From Thermoanaerobaculia bacterium (GTDB taxonomy: Bacteria; Acidobacteriota; Thermoanaerobaculia; Multivoradales; UBA5704), in the NCBI GenBank assembly GCA_045807625.1, contig JBJMHA010000012.1, positions 76,432-140,431 on the forward strand: DNA of 64,000 nucleotides, written 5' to 3'. Shown in pieces: positions 26,969 to 56,177 of the stretch; within the stretch, counting starts at the first letter, position 1, and the number at the start of each line of letters is the position of its first letter. Under the pieces are notes generated by a model, which saw nothing but the letters and a program-made list of their open reading frames with translations, ran no database searches and was not told the DNA's origin. Position numbers and translations under genes: made by a program.

Positions 26969-27388
26969 ATGCCCTACCGTCTCCTCGCCGATCTCCTCGT
27001 CGCCTTCCACGCCGGCTTCGTCCTCTTCGTCGTCCTGGGCGGGCTGCTCGTCCTGCGCTGGCCGCGCCTGGCCTGGGTCCACCTGCCGGCGGCGGTGTGG
27101 GGGGCCTGGGTCGAATTCTCCTCGACCGTCTGCCCGCTGACCCCGCTGGAGAACCACCTCCGCCACCTGGGCGGGGAGGCCGGCTACTCCGGCGGTTTCA
27201 TCGCGCACTATCTGCTGCCGGTGCTCTATCCGGCGGGGTTGGGCCCGTGGGTCCAGGTTGTTTTGGGAGTTTTCGTGGTGCTCCTGAACGCCGCCGCCTA
27301 CCTGCTCGTCTGGCGGCGATCCGACCGATCCGACGGATCAGACCGATCTGACCGATCCGCGGAATCTCCGGAAGGCGAAGAGGCCTAG
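26969..27388 (+). CDS. DUF2784 family membrane protein
   Basis: LAWVHLPAAVWG, CPLTPLEN, GFIAHYLLPVLYP; tail formed by 9-bp (CCGATCCGA-like) repeats. Confidence 0.85.
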   Translation: MPYRLLADLLVAFHAGFVLFVVLGGLLVLRWPRLAWVHLPAAVWGAWVEFSSTVCPLTPLENHLRHLGGEAGYSGGFIAHYLLPVLYPAGLGPWVQVVLGVFVVLLNAAAYLLVWRRSDRSDGSDRSDRSAESPEGEEA

Positions 27389-30145: not shown

Positions 30146-30185
30146 TGGAGGGAGTTTAACCCAGCGCGACAATACCCGGTGGCCC

Positions 30186-30224
30186 AAAAGGAAAACGAGC
30201 GGCTCCGGGGAACCGCTCGTTTCC
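30186..30224 (-). terminator. Intrinsic terminator after the small peptide gene
   Basis: Stem AAACGAGCGG / CCGCTCGTTT followed by TCCTTTT on the minus strand. Confidence 0.7.
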
Positions 30225-30242
30225 TGAAAGCTCTCAGGTGGC

Positions 30243-30377
30243 TTAGCCGCCGGTCGGGCCACCCGGGCCGGGGTCGCCGCCGCCCGGAACCGTGCAGCAA
30301 TCACCGGGATCCGGACCGCCGTCCGGCGACGTGGGGCCAGCGTTCATCAGGGCTTGGTTCAGCAGCGTATCCTTCAT
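30243..30377 (-). CDS. Small Gly/Pro/Asp-rich peptide (44 aa; alternative starts 30395 or 30437)
   Basis: GAGGAG RBS 6 nt before ATG; MKDTLLNQALMNAGPTSPDGGPDPGDCCTVPGGGDPGPGGPTGG; own promoter motif upstream and terminator downstream. Confidence 0.65.
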   Translation of the reverse strand: MKDTLLNQALMNAGPTSPDGGPDPGDCCTVPGGGDPGPGGPTGG

Positions 30378-33525: not shown

Positions 33526-33924
33526 TCAGATGAAGACCGCCGGTGAGACCCTGAAGCGCCCGGCGAGTGCACGGATCTCGCCAAGGTGCCACTCCTTCTC
33601 CCCGGCAAGGACAGCGCGCACAGCCGGGGCTCCGCCGAGCTCGGGCAGGTCGCCGGGGCCGAGGCCGTGCTCTTCCATCAGATACTCCAGAACCTCGGGT
33701 CCGCTGGCCTCGGGAATGGAGACGTGCTCTTCCTCGTAGGCATGAACGAGGGTTCCCAGGATATCGAGAAACCCGTACAGCGGATGCCGGTCGTCGTCGC
33801 CAATTTCTTCGAGCAACGAGCTCAGACGGTCGACGGCAGAGGCATAGTCCTGCTCGTTGCGGATCGTCAGCAGAGGTCCGATGGCTCGCCAGTGGTCCTG
33901 TGTTTCTTTGCGCAGCGCACTCAT
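33526..33924 (-). CDS. higA: HigA-like antitoxin (HTH)
   Basis: IRNEQDY...LGTLVHAYEEEH...LEYLMEEHGL...IRALAGRFRVSPAVFI; ATG overlaps the toxin's natural stop. Confidence 0.8.
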   Translation of the reverse strand: MSALRKETQDHWRAIGPLLTIRNEQDYASAVDRLSSLLEEIGDDDRHPLYGFLDILGTLVHAYEEEHVSIPEASGPEVLEYLMEEHGLGPGDLPELGGAPAVRAVLAGEKEWHLGEIRALAGRFRVSPAVFI

Positions 33925-34206
33925 GATTTCCAAGCTCCCTGGTCGTATTCTGCGTGGGTCAGCACATGCCGGACGTAGACTCTCGCACGGTTGAAGTGGA
34001 TCGCGGCGATCAACCGGTACTTGTTTCCTCCAATGTTGAAGACAATGAGGTCCCACCCAGTCAGCGCTTGGAAACGTAGCTCTCAGCTCGTTGAAGTCTT
34101 TGAAGTCGGTCTTCCGGATAATGGTGTACCAACGGCTGAGCGGGCTCTGACTGTCGGGATGTCCCTCCCCAAATTCTCGCAGGGCCTTGCGGGAGATGAT
34201 GTGCAT
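33921..34206 (-). pseudogene. higB: HigB-like toxin, frameshifted near 34051
   Basis: MHIISRKALREF...TFPSADWVG continues in another frame as LIVFNIGGNKYRLIAAIHFN...VLTHAEYD...WKS*. Confidence 0.8.
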
Positions 34207-34949
34207 GACAAGGCCCTTCGGCGTCTAGATGATACCAGCAACCGGTGCGCGTTGCCGCCCATCACCAACGCCTCCTGATCGGCGGGAAGGCGGAGCAGTC
34301 TGATCTTTTCCAGCTCCAGGCCGGGATGGAGCCAGGGGCCGTCGGTGCCCAGGAGGAGCTTGCCGGCGCCGGCCTTGCGGACGGCTTCGACCAGGTAGTC
34401 GAAACGGCGCACGCCCGAGGTGTCGGCGTAGACGTTGGGGTAGCGCGCCAGGATGTCCACCATCTGCTGCTGCGCGCGCCAGTCGTCCCAGAAGCTCCCC
34501 ATGTGGGCCACCACGAAGGGGACGTCCGGATACTGCGGCGCCAGCATGTGAAGGACGTAGGGGCGGCCGGTCACGTCCACCAGGATGGGGATCCGGTTCT
34601 CCCGCGCCGCCTCGCAGACCTCGCGCGTGGGCATGGCGTCGGTGCCATGGACCTTGATCCCCCGGAACCCCCACTCGCGGACGGCCCGGCGGACCATGGC
34701 GCGGATGCGGCCGGCGTCCCGCTTGGCGTGGACGAAGGCGAAGCCGATCAGCCGCGGATTTCCCGCCACGATGCGGGCCAACTCGGCGTTGGCCTGCGAG
34801 TAGTCGCTGTGGAAGCAGGGGACGACCACCGTATGGGTGATCCCCGCCTCGCGGGCGCGCCGCAGGTATTTACCCAGGGGAGCGTCGGTGAACGGAGGGC
34901 CGGTCATGCCGTCGCCGCGGCCAGCGTGGCAGTGGAAATCGACGATCAT
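34083..34949 (-). CDS. Amidohydrolase family (Amidohydro_2) protein
   Basis: DFHCH, GIKVH, VAHMG, VYADTS, LLLGTDGP; ATG overlaps the M20 stop; C-terminus runs into higB. Confidence 0.88.
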   Translation of the reverse strand: MIVDFHCHAGRGDGMTGPPFTDAPLGKYLRRAREAGITHTVVVPCFHSDYSQANAELARIVAGNPRLIGFAFVHAKRDAGRIRAMVRRAVREWGFRGIKVHGTDAMPTREVCEAARENRIPILVDVTGRPYVLHMLAPQYPDVPFVVAHMGSFWDDWRAQQQMVDILARYPNVYADTSGVRRFDYLVEAVRKAGAGKLLLGTDGPWLHPGLELEKIRLLRLPADQEALVMGGNAHRLLVSSRRRRALSCTSSPARPCENLGRDIPTVRARSAVGTPLSGRPTSKTSTS

Positions 34950-36352
34950 GCCACGGCCTCCGTCTGGAGCGTCGCGTCGGCGTTGCGCTCCGATCGCACC
35001 AGCGCCATCTCCTCGAGGAAGGCGGCGCAGGTGGCAATGCCCCGTTCGAAGTTGGGGAGGTAGAAGCGCTCGTTGGGGGCATGGATGCGATCGGTGGGCA
35101 GGCCGAAGCCCATCAAAGCGGTAGGAATCCCGAGGATCTCCTGGAACAGGTTGACGACCGGGATGCTGCCGCCGGAACGCAGGAAGACGGGCGCGGCCCC
35201 GAATCCGCGTTTATAGGCGCGCGCGGCCGCTCGGATCGCCGCATGCCGGCGGTCGATCTCCGCCGGCCGCGCCCGCAGTTGAGTCTTCACCTGCGAGCGC
35301 ACCGTCGCCGGCGTCAGACGGGCGAGATGGTGCCGCACCAGGGCTTCGATCTCGGCCGGATCCTGCTCCGGCACCAGGCGGAAGTTGAGCTTGGCCGAGG
35401 CGTGGGCGGGGATGATGGCCTTGCTCCCTTCGCCCTGATAGCCGCCGGTCAGACCGCAGATCGACATCGAGGGGCGCACCGTCGTCCGTTCGTACAGCGA
35501 GAATCCGGGCTCGCCCCAACTCCGTTCGGTCTTGGCGTCCGCGAGGATCTTGGCGTCGGAAGGGCCCACCGTCGCCATGTAGGACCTCTCGCGCGGATCG
35601 AGCGGGCGAACGCGGTCGTAGAAGCCGGGGATGGCGATGTGTCCCTCACGGTCGTGCAGGCACGTGACGATCTCGCAGAGGACCTGGAGAGGATTGTGGA
35701 CGGCGCCGCCGACGGTGCCGGAGTGGAGGTCCTTCGCGGGACCGGTCACCTCCAGCTCCAGGCTCAAGCCGCCGCGCAGCGAATAGGTGAGCGCCGGCTG
35801 CCGGGGTCCCAGCATGCGGGTGTCGGATACCACGGCGGCGTCGGCGGCCAGCTCCCCGGCGTGCTTCGTCAGAAAAGGTTTCAAATTGGGGCTGCCGATC
35901 TCCTCCTCTCCTTCGAAGAGGCACTTGACGTTGACCGGCAGCCGGCCCGCGGTCCGCAGATACGACTCCAGGGCTTTCACGTGAGCGAAGAGCTGCCCCT
36001 TGTCGTCGGCGCTCCCGCGGCCGTAGAGGTGCTGGCCGCGCACCGTGGGCTCGAAGGGCGGGGTCCGCCAGTCCTTGAGTGGATCGGGAGGCTGGACGTC
36101 GTAATGGCCGTAGATCAGCACGGTAGTTTTTCCCGGTGCCCGCAGCCATTCGGCGTAGACGATAGGATGCCGGGGCGTCGCGATCAGTCGGACGCCCGCC
36201 ATACCGATTCGCTGGAGCTGCTGCGCGAGCCATTCCGCGCAGGCCCGCACGTCCTCCGCATGGGCGGATTGGGCGCTGATCGACGGGAAGCGGACGAACC
36301 GCTTGAGCTCGGCGAGAGAGCGAGACCTGTGGGTAAGGGAGTAGGGATGCAA
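34946..36352 (-). CDS. M20 family dipeptidase
   Basis: YGHYDVQP, GRGSADDKG, EGEEEIGS, DLHSG, GGSIP, HAPNE. Confidence 0.92.
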   Translation of the reverse strand: MHPYSLTHRSRSLAELKRFVRFPSISAQSAHAEDVRACAEWLAQQLQRIGMAGVRLIATPRHPIVYAEWLRAPGKTTVLIYGHYDVQPPDPLKDWRTPPFEPTVRGQHLYGRGSADDKGQLFAHVKALESYLRTAGRLPVNVKCLFEGEEEIGSPNLKPFLTKHAGELAADAAVVSDTRMLGPRQPALTYSLRGGLSLELEVTGPAKDLHSGTVGGAVHNPLQVLCEIVTCLHDREGHIAIPGFYDRVRPLDPRERSYMATVGPSDAKILADAKTERSWGEPGFSLYERTTVRPSMSICGLTGGYQGEGSKAIIPAHASAKLNFRLVPEQDPAEIEALVRHHLARLTPATVRSQVKTQLRARPAEIDRRHAAIRAAARAYKRGFGAAPVFLRSGGSIPVVNLFQEILGIPTALMGFGLPTDRIHAPNERFYLPNFERGIATCAAFLEEMALVRSERNADATLQTEAVA

Positions 36353-36363
36353 GCGGCAGCCCT

Positions 36364-38163
36364 TCAGGGGGAAGAGAGGTTGAACAGGATCTCGACTCGC
36401 CGGTTCCTCGCGCGGTTCTGTGATGTCCTGTTGTCGGCGACAGGCTGCTCCTCACCACGGCTCTCGACAACGAAGCGGGGTGCTCGCGCCCCTCGCCGCT
36501 CCAAAGCACTGGCCAGCGCCTGTCGCACGCTTTGCGCGCGGGCTTCCCCGAGCCGCACGTTGTAGGCGGCCGGTCCGGTGCTGTCGGTGTGCCCGACGAC
36601 CCGGATGATCCCGGGAGAACGGCTGGCCAGTCGCGCTGCTATCCGTTCGATTTCGGCTAGGTGGCGCGGTTGGAGGGCCGAACTCCTAAAGGCGAATCCC
36701 GTGAGCACTGTGGGAGAGGTGGTGGGGCTCGGAGGGCGCACACGAGACGGGGTACAGCGAGGGGCCGGCAAGGGGCTTCCTCGGAGGACCGGCTCCCACC
36801 AGCGGCCCACGGCTTGGGGGTGCTGCATGTAGAGGCTGACAAGCCTTGGAAATTCGGGGGCCGACCGGCGGCTCCAGGCAGCGTCGATCTGGCACCAGAA
36901 CTCTCTGACAGCACGGATTGCTAGCTGGCGGGCGACGCCGTGGTGACGGTGAGCAGTGTCGTCTTTGGCCAGCAAGGAGTGAGAGATCTCCTGGACGAAG
37001 GAGACGCGAGATCCCGGCGGCATTGGGAAGGTGCGCTGGCCGGTCTGCCGAGCGCCGGCCTCAGCCAAAGGGCGCAAAACCGCGGAAATCGCCAAACGCA
37101 AGGGAAACAGGACGGCCCGCTCCAAGGCCTGTTGGACTCGCCCAATGCGTGCCGGAATGCCGGTCGAGTCCCACGCGTGGATCAACTGGTCATAGAGTCC
37201 CAGGACCCGTGTTCCGAGGAGCCTCCGAATCAGGACCCGAGTGACCCGCCGTTGTACCGGGGACGGCCGGGTGCCGGGTGGGGTCTCCATAAACATCAGG
37301 AAGAGCTTGCTGAGCGATTCAACGGTATCGTTCAGGAGGAAGACACCGGTCGTCAGACGATATCGGCCCCGGCTGTCTCTGAGCCAACGGGGAGGAGGGG
37401 CGCTCGGATTCAATCCGGTGCGCGGATCGTCTCCGCCCAGCAGGTTGTAGCCGAGCTCGATGAAGTTCGAGTGCGCGTAGAAATCTTCGACGGTGTGCAG
37501 GGCATTCCCGAGGTGTTCCAGCCCTCGTGCGGTCCGACCGCTCACCAGAGCTAGGTTAAGCTGGCGCAACACGTAGCGCCGAGAGATATGAAGGTATGTT
37601 GGTGTCGCGTCCGGGCCTTCATTCCACAAGTTCAGACGCCAGCGGGGCGCTTCCGGTTCGAGCTCGGCATTCCGTGCTCGCAGGGCCTCCGCAACGGGAG
37701 CGCAGGTCGACGGCGAGAGGGCAACACCAAAATCTCGCGGGTTGTCGATATGCTCCTCCCAGCGGTAGGTACCGAACCGGTTGCGGTCCAGCCTGCGGCT
37801 GAACTTGGCTTCGCTCAGGACATCCACAATCTCGAAGATCAGGTCACAGACGGAAGCGGCGCCAGCACCGAGGTACTGGTGGAGAGCCGGCGCCAGGAGT
37901 TGGGACATGTCGCGCTGCCAGTTGCCAAAGTAAATCGCGGACCTTGTCCGGGCATCACGTATCAGGGGCTGGAGGGCGTCATACTCGATCCGTTCGTGCC
38001 CCACCTCCCCCGCGTTGAACAGATCGGCCTCGTCCTCCAGTAAGGGCGGGAGAAAACTGGTCTGCTGCGCCGAACCGGTCAGACCATGGAGCGGAGCGCC
38101 CTGCCGGAGGCTCGCGGGCAAAGAGCCCAGGTCGTGTTCTCGCGCAAGACCGAAGATTTCCAA
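36364..38163 (-). CDS. HET-C-like (Zn-dependent PLC/P1-like) domain fused to a C-terminal OmpA-like domain
   Basis: IYFGNWQRDMSQ, EHIDNP, LGNALHTVEDFYAHSNFIEL, HSLLAKD; OmpA motifs VGHTDSTG..YNVRLGEARA..GEEQP..NRRVEI; TTG start after GAGGGAG. Confidence 0.82.
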   Translation of the reverse strand: MEIFGLAREHDLGSLPASLRQGAPLHGLTGSAQQTSFLPPLLEDEADLFNAGEVGHERIEYDALQPLIRDARTRSAIYFGNWQRDMSQLLAPALHQYLGAGAASVCDLIFEIVDVLSEAKFSRRLDRNRFGTYRWEEHIDNPRDFGVALSPSTCAPVAEALRARNAELEPEAPRWRLNLWNEGPDATPTYLHISRRYVLRQLNLALVSGRTARGLEHLGNALHTVEDFYAHSNFIELGYNLLGGDDPRTGLNPSAPPPRWLRDSRGRYRLTTGVFLLNDTVESLSKLFLMFMETPPGTRPSPVQRRVTRVLIRRLLGTRVLGLYDQLIHAWDSTGIPARIGRVQQALERAVLFPLRLAISAVLRPLAEAGARQTGQRTFPMPPGSRVSFVQEISHSLLAKDDTAHRHHGVARQLAIRAVREFWCQIDAAWSRRSAPEFPRLVSLYMQHPQAVGRWWEPVLRGSPLPAPRCTPSRVRPPSPTTSPTVLTGFAFRSSALQPRHLAEIERIAARLASRSPGIIRVVGHTDSTGPAAYNVRLGEARAQSVRQALASALERRGARAPRFVVESRGEEQPVADNRTSQNRARNRRVEILFNLSSP

Positions 38164-38220: not shown

Positions 38221-39384
38221 CTAGTACTCCTGCGCCGCGCTCCGGCTCCCGCCCGCCGCCGCCCGTGGCCGGTTCGCCGCCCCGGAGACCAGACGCGGCC
38301 GGTCCCACGGCAGCACGCGAGCGCTGCCGTCCGGGTTGCGGTTGGCGACTCCGAGGGCCTGCGCGCTGGTGAGCCACTCTTCCGCGGATTCGGCGATCTG
38401 AAGTAGCAAAGCCTCGAATTGCGGGCGCGAGGTCTGCAGGATGTGCGGCTGGGCGAGCCAGCGCATCACCTCGCGGCCGGTCACCGCCATGCGCTGCCGC
38501 GGCGAGGTCTGCAAACGCTCGTTGAAGTGGCGGACGAGCACGTCCTCGATCACGTCCCAGGCCGTGTCGGCGCCGAACAGCCGCCGTATGTCGTCGGTGC
38601 TGAGGATGCGGAAGGCCTCGTCGAGAAGCTGCATCACCTCGACCCGCAGCACATTGAGGTTGCCGAAGGAGGTGAACTTCATGTTGTTGCGCAGGTCGAG
38701 GCCGGCGCGACGGACGATGGCGATCGAGCCGAAGCTGGGATCGTTCGCCCGCTCGCGGATGACGTCGGAGATCCGCTTGTCGCGCCAGAACAGGGTGATC
38801 TGGTTGATCAGATGGCTGAACAGTCCCTGGAAGTCGGTGTTCGGCCGCGAGCCCGGGGGGACCTGGGCGTTGCCGAAGCCGAGCACCCGGCGGTAGGCCA
38901 CCGACCGGTCGCGCCGGGTATAGCGCAGCACCTCGCGGCGGTCGAACTGGTAGAGGCCGTAGGCGCCTTCACCGGTCGACAGGCGCACGGAACCGCCGCG
39001 GAACAGCTCCTGGAGCTTCTGCACCACGCGGAAGACGCCGATCCGCTCGTGCTGATAGATGTAGTAGAGGTCGCCCACCGCGATGATGCGCTCGGAGGTG
39101 ACGGTCTCGTCGTAGGGCTCGACCTGCTGCGGCAGCAGGGTGTCGCCGAGCTTGCGGGCCGCGTCCGGGCCGACGCCGATCAGTTGGGCGAGCCCCTTGT
39201 CGGGCGGCAGCGGCTTCCGGCCGTCCGCGTTCACCACGGCCGAGTAGAGGTCGTTGATCTGCTGGACGATCGCCTCCGCGAGCTGCGGGTTCTGAATAAG
39301 GTCGGACGACAGCCGGCCCGTCATCGTCTCCTGCAGCGCCGCGACGCGGTCGAGAAGGCTTTGGTAGTCCTGTGTGATCGCCAT
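38221..39384 (-). CDS. Hypothetical protein (387 aa), operon member
   Basis: AAGGAG RBS, GC3-rich coding; no motif recognised. Confidence 0.85.
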   Translation of the reverse strand: MAITQDYQSLLDRVAALQETMTGRLSSDLIQNPQLAEAIVQQINDLYSAVVNADGRKPLPPDKGLAQLIGVGPDAARKLGDTLLPQQVEPYDETVTSERIIAVGDLYYIYQHERIGVFRVVQKLQELFRGGSVRLSTGEGAYGLYQFDRREVLRYTRRDRSVAYRRVLGFGNAQVPPGSRPNTDFQGLFSHLINQITLFWRDKRISDVIRERANDPSFGSIAIVRRAGLDLRNNMKFTSFGNLNVLRVEVMQLLDEAFRILSTDDIRRLFGADTAWDVIEDVLVRHFNERLQTSPRQRMAVTGREVMRWLAQPHILQTSRPQFEALLLQIAESAEEWLTSAQALGVANRNPDGSARVLPWDRPRLVSGAANRPRAAAGGSRSAAQEY

Positions 39385-39424: not shown

Positions 39425-41395
39425 TCAGCGGCCTTTGCGAGCACGGGGGGCCGCGGTCCGGTTGTCGCCTGCGTCTTCGTTTTCGTCGTCCGCGCCGGCG
39501 AGGATCTCGAAACCTTCCTCCAGCACGTCGGATTGGTCGCCGGGATTGGTCACGGTGACGTCCCGCGGTCCGGGGGTCGCTTCGGCGTCGATGTGGATCG
39601 AGATCTCCAGGAGCCGGTCGGGCGTGAGCACGGGATCGCCGAGCACGCCGAGCACGGTGACGTCCTCTGCCCCCTGCGGCCCGGGCTCGAAGGCGACCGT
39701 CGCCCCCTCCTGGAAGTCCCTGCCGTGGATCTTCATGAGGATCTTCTGGCCGGGCCTCCCCCTGTCCGGCGAGAGCCGGCGGATGAGCGGCATCACCCCC
39801 GGCTGCGGCTCGGGCTCGGGGAGGAGGCGGCCGCACAGGATGGTGAGGGCGTGAGACAGCGAGCTGTGGGTGCTGTCGGGGTTGCGGACCACCACGGACC
39901 AGACGGTGTCGCCGACGGTGTTGCCGACGGTGTCGCCGACGAATCCGCGGGCGTCGTTGATCTCCTTGGCGTCGAACGTCGCCCAGAGGACCGAGGAGCT
40001 GCCGAAGTGGACGCGCCGGGCTTCCACCGAAACCTTTCTATTGAGAGCCGCTTCGGGCAGATCGATCCGGACCTGCGACTGCGGCTGGAATCCTTCCCCC
40101 TCGATCCTCAGGATGAGCGGCTCCTTGTCGTGCTCCAGTTGTCTGGGATCGACCTGCCGGGGATCGACGGCCGCGATCTTCGCCGGTGGCGTGCGGCTGA
40201 GCGGCTGGGCCAGGTGCTCGGCGTTCCGCAGTTGCAGCAGCACGCTGTCCAGGGCGTTGCTCGCGCGCAGCGTATGCACGCCGGGCGAGGGGTTGCGCGA
40301 CTCGCGACGGGAGATCGCCACCGCCTCGGTGAACAGCCCTATCAGACGCTGGAGGGTGGGACGGAAGGCGATGACGCCGTCCTTGCCCGCCTCCCGCATG
40401 AGCTGCGGCGCCTCCTCGGAAGCGAAACGCTCGGCCCATTCGAGGAGCTCGGCCAGGGTGAGCGGCGGCTCGGGATGCGCGAAAGGGAGCCGGGTCGTCT
40501 CCCGCTCGGCCGGCCCCACGAACACCGAGTCGAGCGTGAAGTAGGTCTCCCGCACCTGCTCTGCGATCACGGCCAGGGCACGCGACAGCAGCACAAACTG
40601 CGGGCCGAGGAAGACGTCCGGACCGATGCGGTCAAAGTAGGTGCGCAGCGACGTCCAGCTCAGCCAGAGGGTGAAGGCGTGGTCGGCGAGGATGAGGAAG
40701 TTGGTGAGGTTCTTCTCCTCTTCGGCGTTGTTGACGCGCGACAGCTCGAAGCCGAGGCGGTCGCGCAGCAGGCCGAGCTGGCCCCCCACGTGGTCGGAAT
40801 TGAAGGTGGTCACCGGCTTTCCGGTGATCTCGATGCCCAGCATCAGGTCGAACAGGGAGTCCACGCGCTGCGGGCGCGGCCCCCCCTGGCGGCCGAGCTC
40901 GTCGACGAGCTCGGTCATCGCCAGGCGGAGCGTCGCCACGGTGGCGGCGAGATCCTCGGGATCGGAGTCGATCTGCAGCGGATAGAGACCCTCGAGGAGG
41001 GGAATACTCTGCTGCACGGCCGCCTGGGCACGGGCGAAAATGCTGGCCTGGGCGCCGGTGACCGCGCCGCCGTCGCCTTGCACTTGCATCACGTAAGAAC
41101 GCGGCACGTGGGTCGTGACGGTACGGCCTTCGATCTCCTGGATGTTGAACGACTGGGTCAGCGCCGCCGCGAACCCCTGGGGATCCTTGAGGGAGCGGGG
41201 TCCCCAGTTCAGGATATCGCGCAGGGTGTTCTTTACCAGGGAGTCATAGGATGACCGGCCCGTGCCGTAGGCCGAGGTCGGCGCGCCGGCAGTGCCGATC
41301 GAGCCGATGTCCTCGGTCAGGATGGGAAAGGCGGTCACGTCCTCGACCGCTCGAACGAAGCGTTCTTGCTCGTCATTGTTCGGTGTGCTTGCCAT
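39425..41395 (-). CDS. Hypothetical protein with helical N-terminal domain and two IPT/TIG-like Ig domains
   Basis: IEGEGFQ...VVVRNPD and IHGRDFQEGATV...RDVTVTNPG repeats; GAGGA RBS. Confidence 0.8.
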   Translation of the reverse strand: MASTPNNDEQERFVRAVEDVTAFPILTEDIGSIGTAGAPTSAYGTGRSSYDSLVKNTLRDILNWGPRSLKDPQGFAAALTQSFNIQEIEGRTVTTHVPRSYVMQVQGDGGAVTGAQASIFARAQAAVQQSIPLLEGLYPLQIDSDPEDLAATVATLRLAMTELVDELGRQGGPRPQRVDSLFDLMLGIEITGKPVTTFNSDHVGGQLGLLRDRLGFELSRVNNAEEEKNLTNFLILADHAFTLWLSWTSLRTYFDRIGPDVFLGPQFVLLSRALAVIAEQVRETYFTLDSVFVGPAERETTRLPFAHPEPPLTLAELLEWAERFASEEAPQLMREAGKDGVIAFRPTLQRLIGLFTEAVAISRRESRNPSPGVHTLRASNALDSVLLQLRNAEHLAQPLSRTPPAKIAAVDPRQVDPRQLEHDKEPLILRIEGEGFQPQSQVRIDLPEAALNRKVSVEARRVHFGSSSVLWATFDAKEINDARGFVGDTVGNTVGDTVWSVVVRNPDSTHSSLSHALTILCGRLLPEPEPQPGVMPLIRRLSPDRGRPGQKILMKIHGRDFQEGATVAFEPGPQGAEDVTVLGVLGDPVLTPDRLLEISIHIDAEATPGPRDVTVTNPGDQSDVLEEGFEILAGADDENEDAGDNRTAAPRARKGR

Positions 41396-41912
41396 GGCTT
41401 CTTGTCCTCTCTAGGCTCGGGGTGTGTGGGGAAGCCGGCGCGCCGGCTTGCTCGGCGATCTCTTTCCAGCCCTGGAACAGGGCTTCGTCGACGTCGTGGG
41501 TGGCGCCCTGGCACTGATCGATGGAGTCGCGGACGCTCTTCACCCAACTCGTCCACTCCCGCCCCCGCCCTCGCTCCAGCGCGGCGAGGTCGGCGATGCG
41601 CCCGAAGGAGGTGACCTCCGCCGAGAACCCTCGCTGGAAGCGCAGGAAGCGTTCCTGGCAGTGGGCCAGGGCATCCCGCGCCGCCTCCAGGTCGCGCGGA
41701 TACTCGACCGCCCGCCGCCCCTGGACGGCCGCGTCGAGCGACTCCCCCAGCCACTCCTCGAGGTCGATCACGGCCTCGCCCAGGCGGTCCAGCAGCGCGC
41801 CGGCGCCTTGGAGAGGCTTGTCCTCGACCACGGCGAGCCGCAGGCCGAGCAGGCCGTCGCGCAGCCGTTCGAGCCGGAGGGTGAGCTCGCCGAAGGCGCC
41901 GTCCAGGGCCAC
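41373..41912 (-). CDS. Hypothetical alpha-helical protein (179 aa)
   Basis: GTG start 3 nt after the upstream stop; 23-nt overlap with the next gene. Confidence 0.75.
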   Translation of the reverse strand: MALDGAFGELTLRLERLRDGLLGLRLAVVEDKPLQGAGALLDRLGEAVIDLEEWLGESLDAAVQGRRAVEYPRDLEAARDALAHCQERFLRFQRGFSAEVTSFGRIADLAALERGRGREWTSWVKSVRDSIDQCQGATHDVDEALFQGWKEIAEQAGAPASPHTPSLERTRSHGKHTEQ

Positions 41913-41915
41913 CGC

Positions 41916-43256
41916 CTATCTCCTCTCCAACTGGGCGTAGAAGTTGCGGGTGATCACGCCCGGCCGGGCCAGCCGGTGATCGAGGGCGAAGCGGGCGGCG
42001 CCGATCATGAAGCGCTCGGGCAAAATCCCGGGATCGATCCCCGCCGAGAGACGGCGGGCGGCCTCTTCGATCATCCTCTGCTCCTTGGGCTGAAAGCGGA
42101 TGACCTGCGCCAGGGTCTTGCCGCCGAGCGAGGGGTAGGGCTGGAAGCAGATGGCATCCACCACCAGCGCCACGGCCCGCGGCCAGGTGGCCATCACCGG
42201 TCCGGGGATGTTGCCGCCCCGGGGGTCCGGATAGAGCCGGCTCCAGGCCCGGCCGTAGGATTCGGCCTCGGCGGGGAAGCCCATCCGGCGCAACAGCTCG
42301 ACAGAGAGGAAGGTCCGCAGGTAGGGCACCGGGTGTGGCGCCCGCGGCGCATAGGACACCACGGCCGACGGCCCGCGTCCCACCACGTCCATGAGCGAGC
42401 CCACCACGGCCGGGCCGCCGAGCAGCAGCCCGCCGAGGTCGGCGAAGATCTCCCGGTTCCACCGCGTCCACACGGCGGCCACGGAGCGGCCGAGGCCCGC
42501 TGCGAGCAGCCGCCGCGCGATGGCGCGGGGGACGGCGCGGGCGAGCCCCAGGTCGTTCTGCAGGTTGTGGCAGACCTCGTGGAGCACGGCCCCCAGGGTC
42601 CATGGGTTGACCATCCGGTGGTAGGGGAGCTGGATCAGCGGGAACGGGTTGAGCTGCCGGCCCAGCCGCGTCAGGGGGATGCCGCGGCGGAAGGTGGCGG
42701 GGGAGAAGCCGGTCCGCATGTAGGAGAAGGGGGCCGGCGCGGGGATGGAGCGGGCTGCCCCAAGCCCCAGGTAGGCGGTCTGATAGCAGTCCTGGGCGAT
42801 GCGGTCGCACCCCAGCAGCCAGACGCCGAAACGGGACTGGCGCTGGCCGAAGAGCTCGAAATAGAAGTCCCAGATCTGCTCGACGGCCCGTACCCGGTCG
42901 TGGGCCCGTTCCTTGTGGCGGACCATCTCCTGAAGGCGGGGCGTGGTGGATTCCGCCAGAGCGGCCTCGACGGAGCCGGTCACCTTGCGGGTCTTGCGGA
43001 ACAGGTCCCGGCGCAACGTCGAGAGGAGGGCGTTGGCGGCCTGGATGTGCCCCTCGGAAGGGATCTCCGGGCCGGCGCCGAACTCCTCGCGGCGGAACGG
43101 GCGCAAGGCGGCGGCATGACGCATGACGTTGAGCGACTGCGCCCGCAGCCAGGGCCGCAGGACCGGAGCGGTCGCTTCGGCCCCCCCCACGCCCGCCGGC
43201 GGCGTGGCCGTCGCCGGCGGGTCGGTGGCGTTCCGTTCGAGGGTCTCGAGCATCAT
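41916..43256 (-). CDS. Putative zinc metalloprotease (HEXXH)
   Basis: VLHEVCHNL, downstream EIFADL and HP motifs (gluzincin/M48-like spacing); GAGGAGG RBS. Confidence 0.72.
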   Translation of the reverse strand: MMLETLERNATDPPATATPPAGVGGAEATAPVLRPWLRAQSLNVMRHAAALRPFRREEFGAGPEIPSEGHIQAANALLSTLRRDLFRKTRKVTGSVEAALAESTTPRLQEMVRHKERAHDRVRAVEQIWDFYFELFGQRQSRFGVWLLGCDRIAQDCYQTAYLGLGAARSIPAPAPFSYMRTGFSPATFRRGIPLTRLGRQLNPFPLIQLPYHRMVNPWTLGAVLHEVCHNLQNDLGLARAVPRAIARRLLAAGLGRSVAAVWTRWNREIFADLGGLLLGGPAVVGSLMDVVGRGPSAVVSYAPRAPHPVPYLRTFLSVELLRRMGFPAEAESYGRAWSRLYPDPRGGNIPGPVMATWPRAVALVVDAICFQPYPSLGGKTLAQVIRFQPKEQRMIEEAARRLSAGIDPGILPERFMIGAARFALDHRLARPGVITRNFYAQLERR

Positions 43257-43268
43257 GGCGCCCTCCTC

Positions 43269-44195
43269 TCAACGCGCTCCGTTGGTGGCCTGGCGGCAGG
43301 TCGAGCAGAGATGGGCCGCTGGACGGACGGCTCGCGAGGCGAGCCGGGGGACCGCTGTCCGGATGCTGGCCGCGGGGCCGGTGGCCGAGGCCACGGGGCC
43401 GGCGGTACGGTGATAGGTGCGGTCGAGCGCCCGCGAGCGCCGGTAGGCCTGGGCGCATTGCGCCGGGCTGCCGATCACCTGCGAGGTCTGGCGGGCCAGG
43501 GTGCGCACGGCCGCCTGCGGCGTCACCCGCCGCCCCTGCTGGGCCTGCCGGGCGAGCGTCGCCGTGGTGCGGCGTACCACGGTCGGCAGGGCCCGCACCA
43601 GCGGCCGGGTGGCGGGATTGGCGCGCAGGGTCCGCGCCGCGCCGGCCACGCCGCGGATGAGAGTGGGAGCGACCCGCATCACCGCCGAGGCCGCCCGCGG
43701 GACGAGCCGGGCCGCCAGCGGCACCAGGGCACCCAGGAAGGCCTCCGCCTCGGCTTCGCTCTCGGCTTCGGCGGCGGCGTGCCCGAGGTGCTCCATCAGG
43801 GCATCGGGATAGACGCGGCGGATGGGATTGATCTCGCTCTCGGATTCGAATTCCCACTCGCCTTCCCGCTGCGGCAGCCAACTGGCGACCTGCTGGCCGA
43901 GCACCCCTCCCAGGCCGCGGCCGAGAGAGGCCCCCCGGGCACCGCCGAGGGAGCCGCCCAGGGACGCTCCCGCGCCCCCCAGCCCCGAAAGGGCGCCGCG
44001 GGCGGCGCGCAGGCCCACCTGGCGCAGGGCGGGGGAGGAGGCGGCCCGCCGGGCGAGGGAGAGGATGCGGCGGAAAAACTCCTCGCTCTCCCCTTCCCCC
44101 TCGGCCTCCCACTCCCACTCGCCTTCCCCTTCAGCCTCCCACTCCGACTCGCCTTCCAGCTCCGGCAGGGCTTCCAGCTCATATTCGTTTGCCAT
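43269..44195 (-). CDS. Acidic/basic block protein B (Glu-X repeats alternating with Arg-rich helices)
   Basis: EGESEWEAEGEGEWEWE...EE|FFRRILSLARR; GGAGG RBS; paralog of 44230..45156. Confidence 0.85.
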   Translation of the reverse strand: MANEYELEALPELEGESEWEAEGEGEWEWEAEGEGESEEFFRRILSLARRAASSPALRQVGLRAARGALSGLGGAGASLGGSLGGARGASLGRGLGGVLGQQVASWLPQREGEWEFESESEINPIRRVYPDALMEHLGHAAAEAESEAEAEAFLGALVPLAARLVPRAASAVMRVAPTLIRGVAGAARTLRANPATRPLVRALPTVVRRTTATLARQAQQGRRVTPQAAVRTLARQTSQVIGSPAQCAQAYRRSRALDRTYHRTAGPVASATGPAASIRTAVPRLASRAVRPAAHLCSTCRQATNGAR

Positions 44196-44229
44196 TACGA
44201 CCTCCTTTGAGTCTTTGAGCCGCCTTTGG

Positions 44230-45156
44230 CTAGTTGGGACGGCGGGTGCGCGGACGGGCGGCGGCGGTGGGGCGCTGGACCGTGCGGGCGGCGCGGACGT
44301 TGCGCTGGATGGCGGCGGCGCAGGTGCGCGGGCTGGACAGCACGCGGCGGGTCTGATTCGCCATCACGCGGGCGGCGGTCCGGCGGGTGACCGGCTGGCC
44401 GGCGGCGGCGCGGCGGGCGAGCACGGAAGCCGTGCGGCGCGCGATGGTGGGGACGGCGCGCACGGCCGGACGCGTGATCCGCCGCTGGCGCAGGATGCGG
44501 GTGAGGATGGCCGTGCCGCGCACCAGGTGCGGCAGGACGACACGCAGGGCCGCCCGGTCCGCGGGCGAGATGGCGCTCACGGTAGCCGCGCCGGCCATCG
44601 CCTCGGCCTCGGCCTCGGTGCGGGCCTGAGAGGCGACCGCCGCCATCAGCTCGGCCAGCGCCTGGGTCTGGGTGGGAGCCGCTTCGGTCTCCCCCTCATA
44701 CTCCAGCTCGCCCTCGTACTCCCCTTCGAATTCCATCTCCATCTCCATCTCGCCCTCGCCGAGAGCCGAGGACGCGACCCGGCCGAGCATGCCGCCCAGC
44801 GGGCCGCCGACCGCCGTGCCGACGATGGGAGCCGCCACCCGCGCGACCTGGCGCAGGATCGGCGCGGCGCGGCGAACGAAGCCGCCGACTCCGCGAGCGA
44901 CGCGGCGGAGACGTCGGAAGAACTCCTCCCCCTCCATCTCACCCTCCATCTCCCACTCACCCTCCCCTTCCATCTCCCACTCCCCTTCGCCCTCGAATTC
45001 CCCCTCCCCCTCGCCGAGCAGGCCGCCGATGCCACGGGCGATCGTGCCCAGGAACTCCTCGCCTTCGAATTCCCCTTCACCCTCGAATTCGCCTTCGCCC
45101 TCAAACTCGCCTTCACCCTCGAATTCGAGCTCGAGCTCACCTTCCAGTGTCGCCAT
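44230..45156 (-). CDS. Acidic/basic block protein A (Glu-X repeats alternating with Arg-rich helices)
   Basis: (EGEGEF)n...EE|FLGTIARGIGGLLG|...EE|FFRRLRRVARG; AAGGAGG RBS; first gene of the operon. Confidence 0.85.
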   Translation of the reverse strand: MATLEGELELEFEGEGEFEGEGEFEGEGEFEGEEFLGTIARGIGGLLGEGEGEFEGEGEWEMEGEGEWEMEGEMEGEEFFRRLRRVARGVGGFVRRAAPILRQVARVAAPIVGTAVGGPLGGMLGRVASSALGEGEMEMEMEFEGEYEGELEYEGETEAAPTQTQALAELMAAVASQARTEAEAEAMAGAATVSAISPADRAALRVVLPHLVRGTAILTRILRQRRITRPAVRAVPTIARRTASVLARRAAAGQPVTRRTAARVMANQTRRVLSSPRTCAAAIQRNVRAARTVQRPTAAARPRTRRPN

Positions 45157-45396
45157 GGGATTTCCTCCTTCGTTCGTTGCACGGATGAGTCATTGGGGCT
45201 GCTGCCGACAGAGATCAATCTAGACCGGCATCGGAAACCGTGGGCAGTCACATCTTCCGGGGAGGCCGAAACGTGCTTCCCCATTCGTGTGTCGCACGAA
45301 ACAGTGACGTCAGAAATCAGAAGAGACTGTAGAATGTATAAAGAAGGAAATACAAATGGATGGCGGGAACGCCAACACCGATGTGAGGAGGGTCTC

Positions 45397-54625: not shown

Positions 54626-55051
54626 ATGACTGTCACCACAGTGCCTGACCCCCAACCCCCACCGGCGGACCGCCGACTCAGCCATGAGCCCCCAGCCGCG
54701 ATAGCGAAGCGTGGCTGGCGCTATCACCACATCGGCGTTCCAACCGACATCCAGCACCCAGGAGAGACTCATCTCGCTGAGTATGGCCTCTACGTGGCGG
54801 GTTTCAGTACCAGCCCGTACGGCGTGGAGTGGATGCGGTTCGAAAAGTCCAGTCCCTTGCCCGAGCTCATCAAGACCGTGCCCCATGTGGCATTCGAAGT
54901 CGACGACCTCGAGGCTGCTCTCGAGGGCCAAGAAGTCATCTATCCTCCCGGGTCTCCGTCGGAAGGCGTCCGAGCCGCCATGATCATGGACAATGGCGCC
55001 CTTGTCGAGCTCATCTGGTTCCGCAAGAACAGCGATGTCCACAAGGCGTGA
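54626..55051 (+). CDS. VOC-family cassette protein
   Basis: YHHIGVPT, PHVAFEVDDL, GALVELI. Confidence 0.8.
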   Translation: MTVTTVPDPQPPPADRRLSHEPPAAIAKRGWRYHHIGVPTDIQHPGETHLAEYGLYVAGFSTSPYGVEWMRFEKSSPLPELIKTVPHVAFEVDDLEAALEGQEVIYPPGSPSEGVRAAMIMDNGALVELIWFRKNSDVHKA

Positions 55052-55087
55052 CACCGAATTCTCGCGGGCGCCTAACACTTTGATATG

Positions 55088-55930
55088 TCACTGCGTTAAA
55101 ACGCCATATGCAACATTCCAGGCGAACAAGTCATTTTGGCTGTTGTCACTGTAAAATACTTCGAGGCGACCACTGCCGTTCAGAATCACCCCAATCTCCC
55201 TGATGTGGCGATCGTCGCTGTTGAAATTGAAGTGGAATCCGCGGATCACGGCCGTTCCGCTGGGGATGGTCGCTCTCTGCCCACCCTTCGCGCTGCCCGA
55301 GCGCTCGCTGACCTCGGAAAAGCGTGACCGCGGGATGTACGCGTAGGAGAGATCAATGCGAAAAGGGTCGTCATCGTTCCTGTCGTTCAACGTCACCGTG
55401 ACCTGGCCATTTCGCTCCTGGATGCCGATCTCGTCGATGTGGTGATCGCCGCCCCGGTACTGAAGATAGAAGCCGCGGATCACGAAGACAGAGCTGGCTC
55501 CGTTCGCAGGTACCTTAACAGGGAAGGTGATACTCTTTTTTCTGCCGAATTCTGTGGTGGTATTGCGGGAAATCTCGCCGAAATAGGGTGCGAAGGTGAT
55601 GTTGTAAAAATATCTGTCATCACCGTTTTTGTCCGAGAAACCGATGGAAGCCTTGTTGATGGCAGGCATGTTCGGCTGGACTTCCATCCCGCCGTAGTGA
55701 TGATCGTCGTCGCGGAACCGGAAATAAAAAGACTGCAGGAGCGGCGCGCCGTTTTGAGTGAGACCCAGCGGGGTGGTAATGAACCCCTTCGCATTCCCTT
55801 GCAGATTCTCGGCCGTCGCGGTCGCTGACCCGCCGGCGAGCATCATCGTCCCCAGCAGAATGAGGAGAGCAGCGAAGGCCCTGGGGCCGTGCCTGAGGTC
55901 AAGAAGGAGGGAGCCGAGTCGCGTGATCAT
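55088..55930 (-). CDS. Secreted protein with three internal repeats
   Basis: Signal peptide; three ~75-85 aa units each with F-x-F/L...D-(H/R)-H and D-x-N-x-D-D-like motifs; AAGGAG RBS. Confidence 0.75.
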   Translation of the reverse strand: MITRLGSLLLDLRHGPRAFAALLILLGTMMLAGGSATATAENLQGNAKGFITTPLGLTQNGAPLLQSFYFRFRDDDHHYGGMEVQPNMPAINKASIGFSDKNGDDRYFYNITFAPYFGEISRNTTTEFGRKKSITFPVKVPANGASSVFVIRGFYLQYRGGDHHIDEIGIQERNGQVTVTLNDRNDDDPFRIDLSYAYIPRSRFSEVSERSGSAKGGQRATIPSGTAVIRGFHFNFNSDDRHIREIGVILNGSGRLEVFYSDNSQNDLFAWNVAYGVLTQ

Positions 55931-56177
55931 GGGGATCTCCTTTGGGTACGCAGCCGCCCGAATGGGCGTTAGCGTCTTCGTATTTAGGCGTTGGTTGGCG
56001 CGACTTCGTTACACGAGAGAGGATAAGGAGGAAGAAGTGCCGGTACTCAGTGCGATATGCCTCCCAAGCGCCCAGTCCCTCGAAGCCATTGTGACGGAGG
56101 ACGGGGTTGGGCTAAGATGGAAGGCCAGCCCCAGGTAAGCTCATGCCCAGTCTCTTGCGGGAGCAAGGAGGCCGATC

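Follow-up and report, generated by a model that had tools for sequence, protein, structure and literature searches.

Paired glutamate-tract and glycine-zipper proteins beside a candidate metallopeptidase: an apparently mobile gene cassette in a Thermoanaerobaculia bacterium

A stretch of 64,000 nucleotides (hereafter the window) from contig JBJMHA010000012.1 of a Thermoanaerobaculia bacterium (assembly GCA_045807625.1) carries a gene cassette that consists of a LuxR-type regulator and nine genes designated A to I, among which A and B encode two paralogous proteins of 308 amino acids (aa). Both open reading frames (ORFs) were confirmed on the minus strand, where all features described below lie unless a plus strand is stated, with A at positions 44230-45156 and B at 43269-44195. 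An earlier note on this DNA, made from the sequence alone, had described the pair as resembling precursors of antimicrobial peptides, and every peptide string that it quoted is present in the translations. Each gene is preceded at 6-9 nucleotides (nt) by a ribosome-binding site of the AGGAGG type, and the gap between B and gene C is 12 nt, which indicates an operon-like arrangement. In a simple scan, nothing resembling a promoter was seen, nor was there a coding-strand terminator between A and B.

Protein A contains 49 glutamates, 39 arginines and no lysine (net charge -11), while B contains 30 glutamates and 38 arginines (net +6). In both proteins, tracts in which glutamate alternates with another residue (Glu-x tracts) are set between acid-free blocks. 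Three Glu-x tracts, one module of 14 residues, a cationic glycine-zipper segment of 55 residues and an Arg-rich C-domain make up A. Its first tract (aa 5-33; 45058-45144) lies over an 18-bp DNA repeat and is followed by acid-free module 1 (aa 35-48; 45013-45054; net +1), for which the family-wide helical periodicity peaks at 95 degrees. The second tract (aa 49-77; 44926-45012) leads into the acid-free cationic segment (aa 79-133; 44758-44922; +10), an amphipathic helix (peak 100 degrees) succeeded by a glycine zipper, and the third (aa 134-159; 44680-44757) precedes the C-domain (aa 186-308; 44233-44601), which includes the acid-free block of residues 201-308 (+27) and is introduced by the motif that is best conserved in the family, a Glu-Ala repeat (aa 181-186). 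B comprises an N-terminal Glu-x tract (aa 12-38; 44082-44162), a 71-residue acid-free cationic glycine-zipper segment (aa 40-110; 43866-44078; net +10), further tracts at residues 111-122 and 143-152, and a Glu-Ala repeat with the shared Arg-rich C-domain (aa 140-270; 43386-43778), the second acid-free block of B spanning residues 152-257 (+18). The switch from tract to acid-free segment is as abrupt as the earlier note had claimed, occurring at GEE|F twice in A and at SEE|F and EAE-A|F in B. The glycine zippers that it had pointed out are also present, with four glycines in A (Gly 113-117-121-125) and seven in B (from 76 to 100), all at i+4 spacing, as is the common C-domain, which is 47% identical between A and B over 89 residues (E 8e-17).

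The 18-bp DNA repeats reported under the acidic tracts were recovered as three arrays, at 45065-45127 (3.5 copies, 84% matches), 44925-44988 (3.6 copies) and 44082-44132 (2.8 copies), and a 30-bp repeat occurs at 44088-44157 in B. In a six-frame scan of the 7.5-Mb genome, tracts of at least six Glu-x repeats were found five times, and all five lie inside A or B, which is far beyond chance. The suggestion that these repeats allow the tracts to vary in length holds at the scale of homologues, where tracts extend from 6 to 66 residues across 120 sequences and alignment occupancy is 0.42-0.96 in the tracts versus about 1.0 elsewhere. Near-identical contigs lend it weak support, with a single in-frame 6-bp loss at 44732 in the Glu-Met repeat of A, seen in one contig of depth 2.8. 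These contigs, short and fragmented and all from soil metagenomes, display four small in-frame indels and a 1-bp loss upstream of A (45231) and are otherwise uninformative on the length of the tracts. In-frame insertions of GGC, GGCGGC and GCG occur in them at 44256 and 43342, in the Ala/Arg-rich tails of A and B, so that the C-terminal tails also differ in length among strains. Sequencing runs matching this stretch comprise only DNA metagenomes from soil and rhizosphere, and no RNA runs are listed among them.

The family to which A and B belong is large and unnamed. At least 1507 homologues of A were found at E<=1e-3 among 8000 scored candidates, all the named ones being annotated as hypothetical, and a C-domain profile built from an alignment of 43 sequences matched 930 representative clusters at E<=1e-3 in 1.84 billion proteins. 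Comparison of A and B with Pfam, NCBIfam, PADLOC and PHROGs yielded nothing meaningful, and in the ESM Atlas A matched only unnamed clusters, with all structural neighbours below a template-modelling (TM) score of 0.36. The junction between tract and acid-free segment, whose conservation the earlier note had left to a comparison of homologues, is well preserved. In a 17-member multi-phylum alignment (45-84% identity to A), F79 and F80 at the second junction are invariant. Across the 120 homologues, 273 acid-free segments of at least 12 residues follow acid tracts; 187 of them (68%) begin with phenylalanine, and EE|FL or EE|FF stands at 175 of the 273 junctions. Column identity reaches 0.86-0.90 in the glycine-zipper region, 0.90 in the Glu-Ala motif before the C-domain and 0.82 at the second junction, and is lowest in the gapped acid tracts (0.28-0.63), so that junction and cationic segments are better conserved than the tracts themselves. 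The block design is thus conserved and not a compositional accident.

The residue that alternates with glutamate is glycine in 28% of cases, phenylalanine in 16%, leucine and alanine in 13% each, tyrosine in 10.5% and proline in only 0.2%. Family-averaged hydrophobicity has a helical period of 95-100 degrees in the acid-free segments and one of 180 degrees, that is, strict alternation, in the tracts. Arginine outnumbers lysine by 4598 to 264 in the 120 homologues. Relatives of lower guanine-plus-cytosine (G+C) content (P0246 and P0283) carry lysine in place of arginine and keep a cationic amphipathic stretch directly behind the acid tract. These two proteins, of 526 and 651 aa respectively, are natural tandem fusions of two family units, with Lys-rich segments and acidic repeats that contain Asn, Pro and Tyr. 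Modules of the type found at residues 35-48 of A are present in 0, 1, 2 or 3 copies in 49, 47, 23 and 1 of the 120 homologues, and an extra copy is visible in the alignment for P0063 and P0080. The copy number of whole genes varies between loci as well, with three consecutive family genes at one locus (L002, 9716-12816), where a further B-type gene accompanies A and B, and two B-like genes at another (L025, 8568-10972).

Gene C (41916-43256) encodes a basic protein of 446 aa (net +22, isoelectric point 10.8) that, judging from motifs and fold matches, is an all-alpha gluzincin. It contains an HExxH motif (aa 226-230; 42567-42581) and an ExxxD motif (aa 269-273; 42438-42452) that starts 39 residues beyond it; H226, E227 and H230 of the former and E269 and D273 of the latter are invariant in 20 of 20 orthologues, and these motif residues would be the ones that bind zinc. 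The AlphaFold model is confident and all-alpha (predicted local distance difference test 80, predicted TM score 0.83). In the VIA fold comparison the six best matches are all M13 peptidases (an H-gal-GP component, two PepO proteins, ECE-1, Zmp1 and neprilysin), with Z 5.9-7.1, a root-mean-square deviation of 4.5-5.4 and 212-236 of the 446 residues aligned, and zincins of families M48, M49, M4, M1 and M36 rank below them; Foldseek against the PDB gave no match at E<=0.001. C resembles M13 enzymes such as neprilysin, PepO, ECE-1 and Zmp1 in its HExxH and ExxxD motifs, while differing in size (446 aa versus about 630-700) and in being very basic, and it looks like the representative of a new gluzincin family. 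Its basicity, which is unusually strong and recurs in every one of the 20 orthologues (net charges from +12 to +33), fits a polyanionic substrate. Enzymes of the M13 and M4 families cleave on the amino side of hydrophobic residues. A prediction of the complex between residues 31-446 of C and residues 1-140 of A scored 0.00 and was run without controls, and therefore counts for neither side. Two genomes of the same phylum (L033 in G034 and L034 in G251) contain genes distantly similar to C (tblastn, 25-28% identity, E about 1e-26) that have no A/B-like neighbour and no Glu-x tract. The new gluzincin family thus extends beyond the cassette, and these genomes offer no independent test of the link between protease and precursor.

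The wider gene neighbourhood was established by scanning one genome per species, which gave 28 loci, and by comparing the neighbouring genes with the window proteins by tblastn. The conserved order is LuxR, A, B, C, D, E, F, a variable slot G, the M20 peptidase H and the amidohydrolase I; the LuxR regulator is mostly divergent, and a second one is sometimes found at the far end. In the window, the LuxR/GerE-type gene is divergent and lies on the plus strand at 45334-45852, with an approximate start codon and the GerE domain at aa 113-164 of the translated interval 45310-45852. The 28 loci span eight phyla, namely Acidobacteriota, Actinomycetota, Chloroflexota, Planctomycetota, Armatimonadota, Vulcanimicrobiota, Pseudomonadota and Cyanobacteriota. 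C stands directly downstream of the A/B pair in 27 of them, an A-type and a B-type gene occur together in 24, and F was likewise found in 24. Three of the four loci without F are explained by contig ends. The fourth, a cyanobacterial locus (L028), encodes at positions 1-1332 a protein that has the Glu-Ala motif and the C-domain behind a different N-terminal part and is not accompanied by a cassette; its N-terminal region is unrelated, rich in Lys and Arg and without a Pfam match, and the 7.8 kb downstream contain no cassette genes.

The cassette is rare within the phylum of the window. A profile of C (E<=1e-20) matches 4 of 301 sampled genomes, its own included, and the strong matches are confined to its own genome and one other (G158), which has the whole cassette. 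The closest named relatives of C, at about 80% identity, belong to Thermoanaerobaculia (Acidobacteriota), and a complete cassette resides on a 2.4-Mb Paraburkholderia replicon. Loci that contain C number roughly 2800, and the culturable strains with the cassette include Silvibacterium bohemicum S15, Streptomyces gilvus CME 23, Blastococcus xanthinilyticus DSM 46842, Nocardioides phosphati and Paraburkholderia sp. PGU19. Since identity between phyla is high (52-68% for C and 52-73% for F) and occurrence is rare, the comparison points to a horizontally spread accessory module, and the patchy distribution fits an accessory weapon or a lysis island. An F-like domain (27% identity) also forms the C-terminal part of a 615-aa protein on a plasmid of Tolypothrix sp. 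PCC 7712 (L032, 5585-16803), where its neighbours encode an alpha/beta hydrolase, an S8 peptidase, a PG_binding_1 protein and a TIG-domain protein, and where A, B and C are absent; the locus possibly represents an older, second form of the system. A phage origin of the cassette was considered and rejected, since a comparison of F with 50,697 phage records gave no match.

Downstream of C, gene D (41373-41912) encodes an acidic protein of 179 aa without a known family, whose position after C is conserved. Gene E (39425-41395; 656 aa) combines a conserved N-terminal core of about 400 aa with a variable beta-sandwich part, and its orthologues carry either CarboxypepD_reg, SdrD_B and SpaA sandwiches or PASTA domains. 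Gene F (38221-39384) encodes an all-alpha protein of 387 aa that is the most conserved of the cassette, with 52-73% identity to the window's F in 18 orthologues and a mean column identity of 69%. Pfam and NCBIfam have no match for D, the E core or F, and sequence searches of the PDB with E and F, both single and profile, gave nothing credible. For F, Foldseek found nothing at E<=0.001 in the PDB and among viral models, the ESM Atlas held no usable match, and a wide VIA search returned only uninformative matches to an N-terminal helical hairpin. In PADLOC, A to F have no match and G matches MotB-like ZorB models through its OmpA part alone, while the PHROGs matches are limited to a weak low-complexity one for B and OmpA-type ones for G. 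The cassette ends with gene H (34946-36352), an M20 dipeptidase (NCBIfam PRK08201, 544 bits versus a cut-off of 441), and gene I (34083-34949), a hydrolase of the Amidohydro_2 family. Near that end, an ORF at 33526-34206 (minus strand), which overlaps the end of the amidohydrolase gene, has a partial match to HigB/RelE-type toxins (aa 20-53) and could represent a genuine but shorter gene or else a spurious frame.

Gene G (36364-38163) occupies the variable slot and in the window encodes a 599-aa protein with a Het-C domain and an OmpA peptidoglycan-binding domain, in which no signal peptide was seen. Work on polymorphic toxin systems describes Het-C as a predicted phospholipase C or S1-P1 nuclease-like toxin domain (PMC3482391). 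At other loci the slot is filled by trypsin with OmpA, trypsin, a PG_binding_1 protein, an M74-like murein-endopeptidase domain or Het-C, and in one case (L035) by an HExxH domain with OmpA. The domain types of E and G normally work outside the cytoplasm, yet both proteins are signal-less. Indeed, hydropathy and inspection revealed no signal-peptide-like or membrane-spanning stretch in any of A to I (19-residue Kyte-Doolittle maximum 1.66).

Several proteins connect this effector slot with A and B. A Pfam scan of 31 family members with extra length was informative for two, P0306 and P0345. P0306 is a complete B-type protein with a C-terminal extension that matches Aspzincin_M35 at 27.5 bits, below the cut-off of 30, and that is homologous to the HExxH domain of the free-standing L035 effector (29% over 189 aa, E 4e-9). 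In P0345, a B-type protein is joined to PG_binding_1 and an OmpA-like end; with the G-slot protein of L006 it has only the PG_binding_1 repeat in common (E 4e-4). The C-terminal extension of P0293 has no similarity to the L035 effector, and a search in the range of 540-2000 aa for longer fusions of the C-domain gave one weak match, P0392, without a Pfam domain. In addition, the trypsin-OmpA effector of L003 starts with a 36-residue Glu-x tract and the L035 effector with two shorter ones, so that the tract behaves like a shared leader; the only other tract found outside A and B is at the C-terminus of one F orthologue. Effectors that are fused to the A/B scaffold or that, in some cases, bear the same acidic leader indicate that they are tied to A and B physically or by common processing.

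It is tentatively proposed, at somewhat less than an even chance, that A and B are membrane-active pro-proteins, or else carriers, which are masked by acidic tracts and matured by a protease, and which give effectors that attack the wall but have no signal peptide access to the envelope. The proposal starts from direct observations: the architecture and how well it is conserved, the linkage of the genes, the metallopeptidase motifs of C, the variety of wall-directed effectors, and the fusion of an effector to B. Within it, A and B would form the paired core of a LuxR-controlled, horizontally mobile, envelope-attacking cassette and would be made in the cytoplasm as soluble pro-proteins. Their membrane-active parts would be the cationic amphipathic glycine-zipper helices, neutralised by the flanking Glu-x tracts. 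The basic gluzincin C would dock on these polyanionic tracts, cut at Glu-Glu|Phe and probably also at other Glu|hydrophobic bonds inside the tracts, and thereby unmask the cationic segments, while the M20 dipeptidase H would clear the acidic fragments. Once unmasked, A and B, with the Arg-rich C-domain retained, could insert into or permeabilise the cytoplasmic membrane, and the peptidoglycan-binding hydrolases or lipase of slot G, together with the beta-sandwich protein E, might thereby gain access to the wall. This would end in controlled lysis, in toxin release or in the killing of neighbours. The context of wall-binding, signal-less hydrolases and the fusion of an effector to B favour such a membrane-active carrier or lysis role over a freely secreted antibiotic. 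A more far-reaching version, which is doubtful, regards the cassette as a delivery or lysis system that dispenses with a membrane-embedded secretion machine and operates in monoderms and diderms alike; the Glu-x tract would then be a new class of leader common to A, B and wall-degrading effectors, which gluzincin C removes, and the unmasked carriers would take effectors, fused or separate, across the membrane.

Several points weigh against the proposal of masked, protease-activated proteins. Cleavage, the cleavage site, membrane activity and the outcome are all inferred, and the cleavage preference assigned to C is taken from other families. The M13 matches of C, with Z of about 6-7, are middling, a level that helical models often reach by chance, and C has no match in Pfam (E<=0.1) or NCBIfam and none by sequence in the PDB, whether searched as a single sequence or as a profile. 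For these reasons C is regarded as a gluzincin whose nearest fold is M13 and not as a member of M13. On the side of the presumed substrates, module 1 of A has a charge of only +1 and is nearly neutral, and the mean hydrophobicity of the 55-residue segment of A is a modest 0.09. The cationic segments and the Glu-Ala motif have column identities of 0.8-0.9 across phyla, higher than is usual for lytic peptides, which suggests specific protein contacts. Furthermore, the cassette has no recognisable immunity gene, and a clear Glu-x tract is present in only 2 of the approximately 10 slot-G proteins whose N-termini were examined.

A and B could instead be carriers or scaffolds that function without proteolysis, with the Glu-x tracts as docking tags for the Arg-rich C-domain, either inside a single molecule or between A, B and tagged effectors, an A-B complex, fibre or condensate that forms by charge complementarity and collects effectors, and another task for C. 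This is judged unlikely. Both proteins are block polyampholytes with long acidic and basic blocks, A-type and B-type genes are paired in 24 of the 28 loci, the non-acidic blocks are very highly conserved, and the tract-bearing effectors of L003 and L035, the effectors fused to a B-type protein and the tandem double units of P0246 and P0283 would all be natural in an assembly of this kind. Autoinhibition between an acidic tract and an Arg-rich region offers an analogy and is described for G3BP condensates in the abstract of PMC7181197. Such a scaffold leaves unexplained the sharp EE|Phe boundary and the invariable neighbouring metallopeptidase, while the glycine zippers and the amphipathic periodicity point to membranes, and the scarcity of clear tracts among slot-G proteins tells against docking tags as well. 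The same Arg-rich C-domain, which has a charge of +18 to +27 over about 110 residues, helical periodicity and a strong preference for Arg over Lys (4598 to 264), might instead bind DNA, RNA or another polyanion, with the Glu-x tracts as an autoinhibitory mimic. That function is very improbable, because Pfam and NCBIfam contain no nucleic-acid-binding family that matches, lower-G+C relatives use Lys instead of Arg, the neighbours are wall-directed hydrolases and peptidases and not nucleic-acid enzymes, and the known fusions are to wall-binding or peptidase domains.

Two further explanations take A and B as sources of small products. If the earlier note is taken literally, A and B would be exported two-component bacteriocin precursors from which peptides are cut, secreted and used to kill bacteria, and this is considered decidedly unlikely. 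The closest parallel is the Caulobacter system described in passages of PMC5380434, in which CdzC and CdzD are likewise two adjoining paralogous glycine-zipper proteins, both needed for killing by contact and thought to be membrane-damaging. The Cdz proteins, however, are small (about 5-10 kDa; 86 aa for CdzC and 84 aa for CdzD), mostly hydrophobic, equipped with an RTX-like leader and encoded beside type I secretion genes, whereas A and B match them in neither size, leader nor secretion, being 308 aa long with a large conserved C-domain and having no leader of known type, no immunity gene and, like every other cassette protein, no membrane-spanning segment. An HlyD-type gene does lie 2.5 kb away (47677-49044), but it has no match in the 28 loci and their 10-kb flanks, an ATP-binding cassette (ABC) exporter not having been searched for separately. 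A link to type I secretion was rejected, as the HlyD-type gene is not conserved beside related loci. The 5' end of this gene (minus strand) and the DNA upstream of it contain adjoining tandem arrays of 21-bp period (48688-49135; up to 8 copies, 63-75% matches), which are open in several frames and encode odd repetitive peptides. Least probable of all is the notion that A and B are precursors resembling ribosomally synthesised and post-translationally modified peptides (RiPPs), whose segments are modified by D, E, F and I and trimmed by C and H to give a small product. The operon would suit this in that precursor-like genes lead it, a protease, a dipeptidase, an amidohydrolase and unassigned proteins follow, and LuxR regulators accompany it. 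Known families of maturases, recognition elements and transporters did not appear in the family scans, and precursors 300 aa long that stay 60-75% identical between phyla along almost the whole sequence, next to a variable slot of wall-binding toxins and not of tailoring enzymes, would be unexpected. The probability left over from these readings goes to something else.

The analogy on which the earlier note rested, between A and B and precursors with acidic propieces, stands in part. As passages of PMC3415428 describe them, the apidaecin and hymenoptaecin precursors of insects and the alpha-factor-type precursors of yeast consist of repeated units separated by acidic EAEP spacers. Such multipeptide precursors of antimicrobial peptides resemble A and B, which also would favour a bacteriocin, in having units between Glu-x spacers and a variable copy number; proteolytic release, established there, would be expected for A and B. 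The likeness is strengthened by the conserved block design, the 0-3 copies of the module and the metallopeptidase next door. According to the same passages, the insect and yeast precursors have a signal peptide, dibasic sites of the Kex2 type and X-Ala or X-Pro dipeptides cut by a dipeptidyl aminopeptidase (PMC3415428). In contrast, A and B begin directly with, or close to, their acidic tracts, and their 19-residue hydropathy maxima (1.35 and 1.33) lie far from the N-terminus. Their acid-free segments are set off at Glu-Glu|Phe, the protease proposed for them is a gluzincin, a 110-residue Arg-rich domain is added, and there is no sequence relationship; the cassette has no dipeptidyl peptidase and has an M20 dipeptidase instead. 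Without a signal peptide, a dibasic site or a dipeptidyl peptidase, A and B are not members of the animal precursor type, and their segments are too conserved for free lytic peptides.

Among lysis and delivery systems, the proposed mechanism has partial counterparts. Holins sit in the membrane as integral proteins and span it with one to four helices. Holin-endolysin and type 10-like release systems share with the cassette the presence of signal-less peptidoglycan enzymes beside small, here presumably, membrane-active proteins under regulation. The identification of A and B as holins was rejected, since their segments fall below membrane-spanning hydropathy (maximum 1.35) and there is no phage context. 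Bacterial pore formers of the gasdermin type are made as a cytoplasmic pro-form that is masked by a C-terminal inhibitory peptide and unmasked by a protease. The same protease unmasking is proposed for A and B, except that the mask would be the Glu-x tracts; there is no sequence or family similarity and no PADLOC match. Polymorphic toxins, as portrayed in passages of PMC3482391, likewise have a variable toxin or hydrolase slot, here with Het-C, trypsin, M35-like and M74-like domains, and a domain that may be fused or free. Unlike them, the cassette has no known trafficking domain (such as RHS, PAAR, LXG or TPS) and no known secretion system, and the carrier would be A and B.

A description of the family or the cassette was not found in the literature, the coverage of which was partial, so that one may exist elsewhere. 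If the proposed mechanism is correct, membrane-active peptides would be masked in an undescribed manner, by alternating glutamate, and armed by a private protease in at least eight phyla, and signal-less wall-degrading enzymes would have a route out of the cytoplasm. The cassette would then constitute a new module for lysis, toxin release or delivery. It would bring with it a new leader signal, a new metallopeptidase family whose polyanionic substrate could be predicted, and a naturally occurring series of conserved cationic glycine-zipper peptides as candidate membrane agents. Even if the mechanism is wrong, A, B, C, D, the E core and F are without family assignment, homologues number in the thousands and are 60-75% identical between phyla, and the cassette occurs in roughly 1 in 100 of the genomes sampled from the window's phylum and in culturable strains.

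Elsewhere in the window, about 4 kb past the end of the cassette, a gene at 27338-30304 (minus strand) encodes a protein of 988 aa that combines TPR repeats with a CHAT (caspase-like) protease domain; at other loci it showed no connection with the cassette. The interval 50001-56000 has a G+C content of 0.56-0.58 versus 0.65-0.74 in most of the window and may be a foreign insert.

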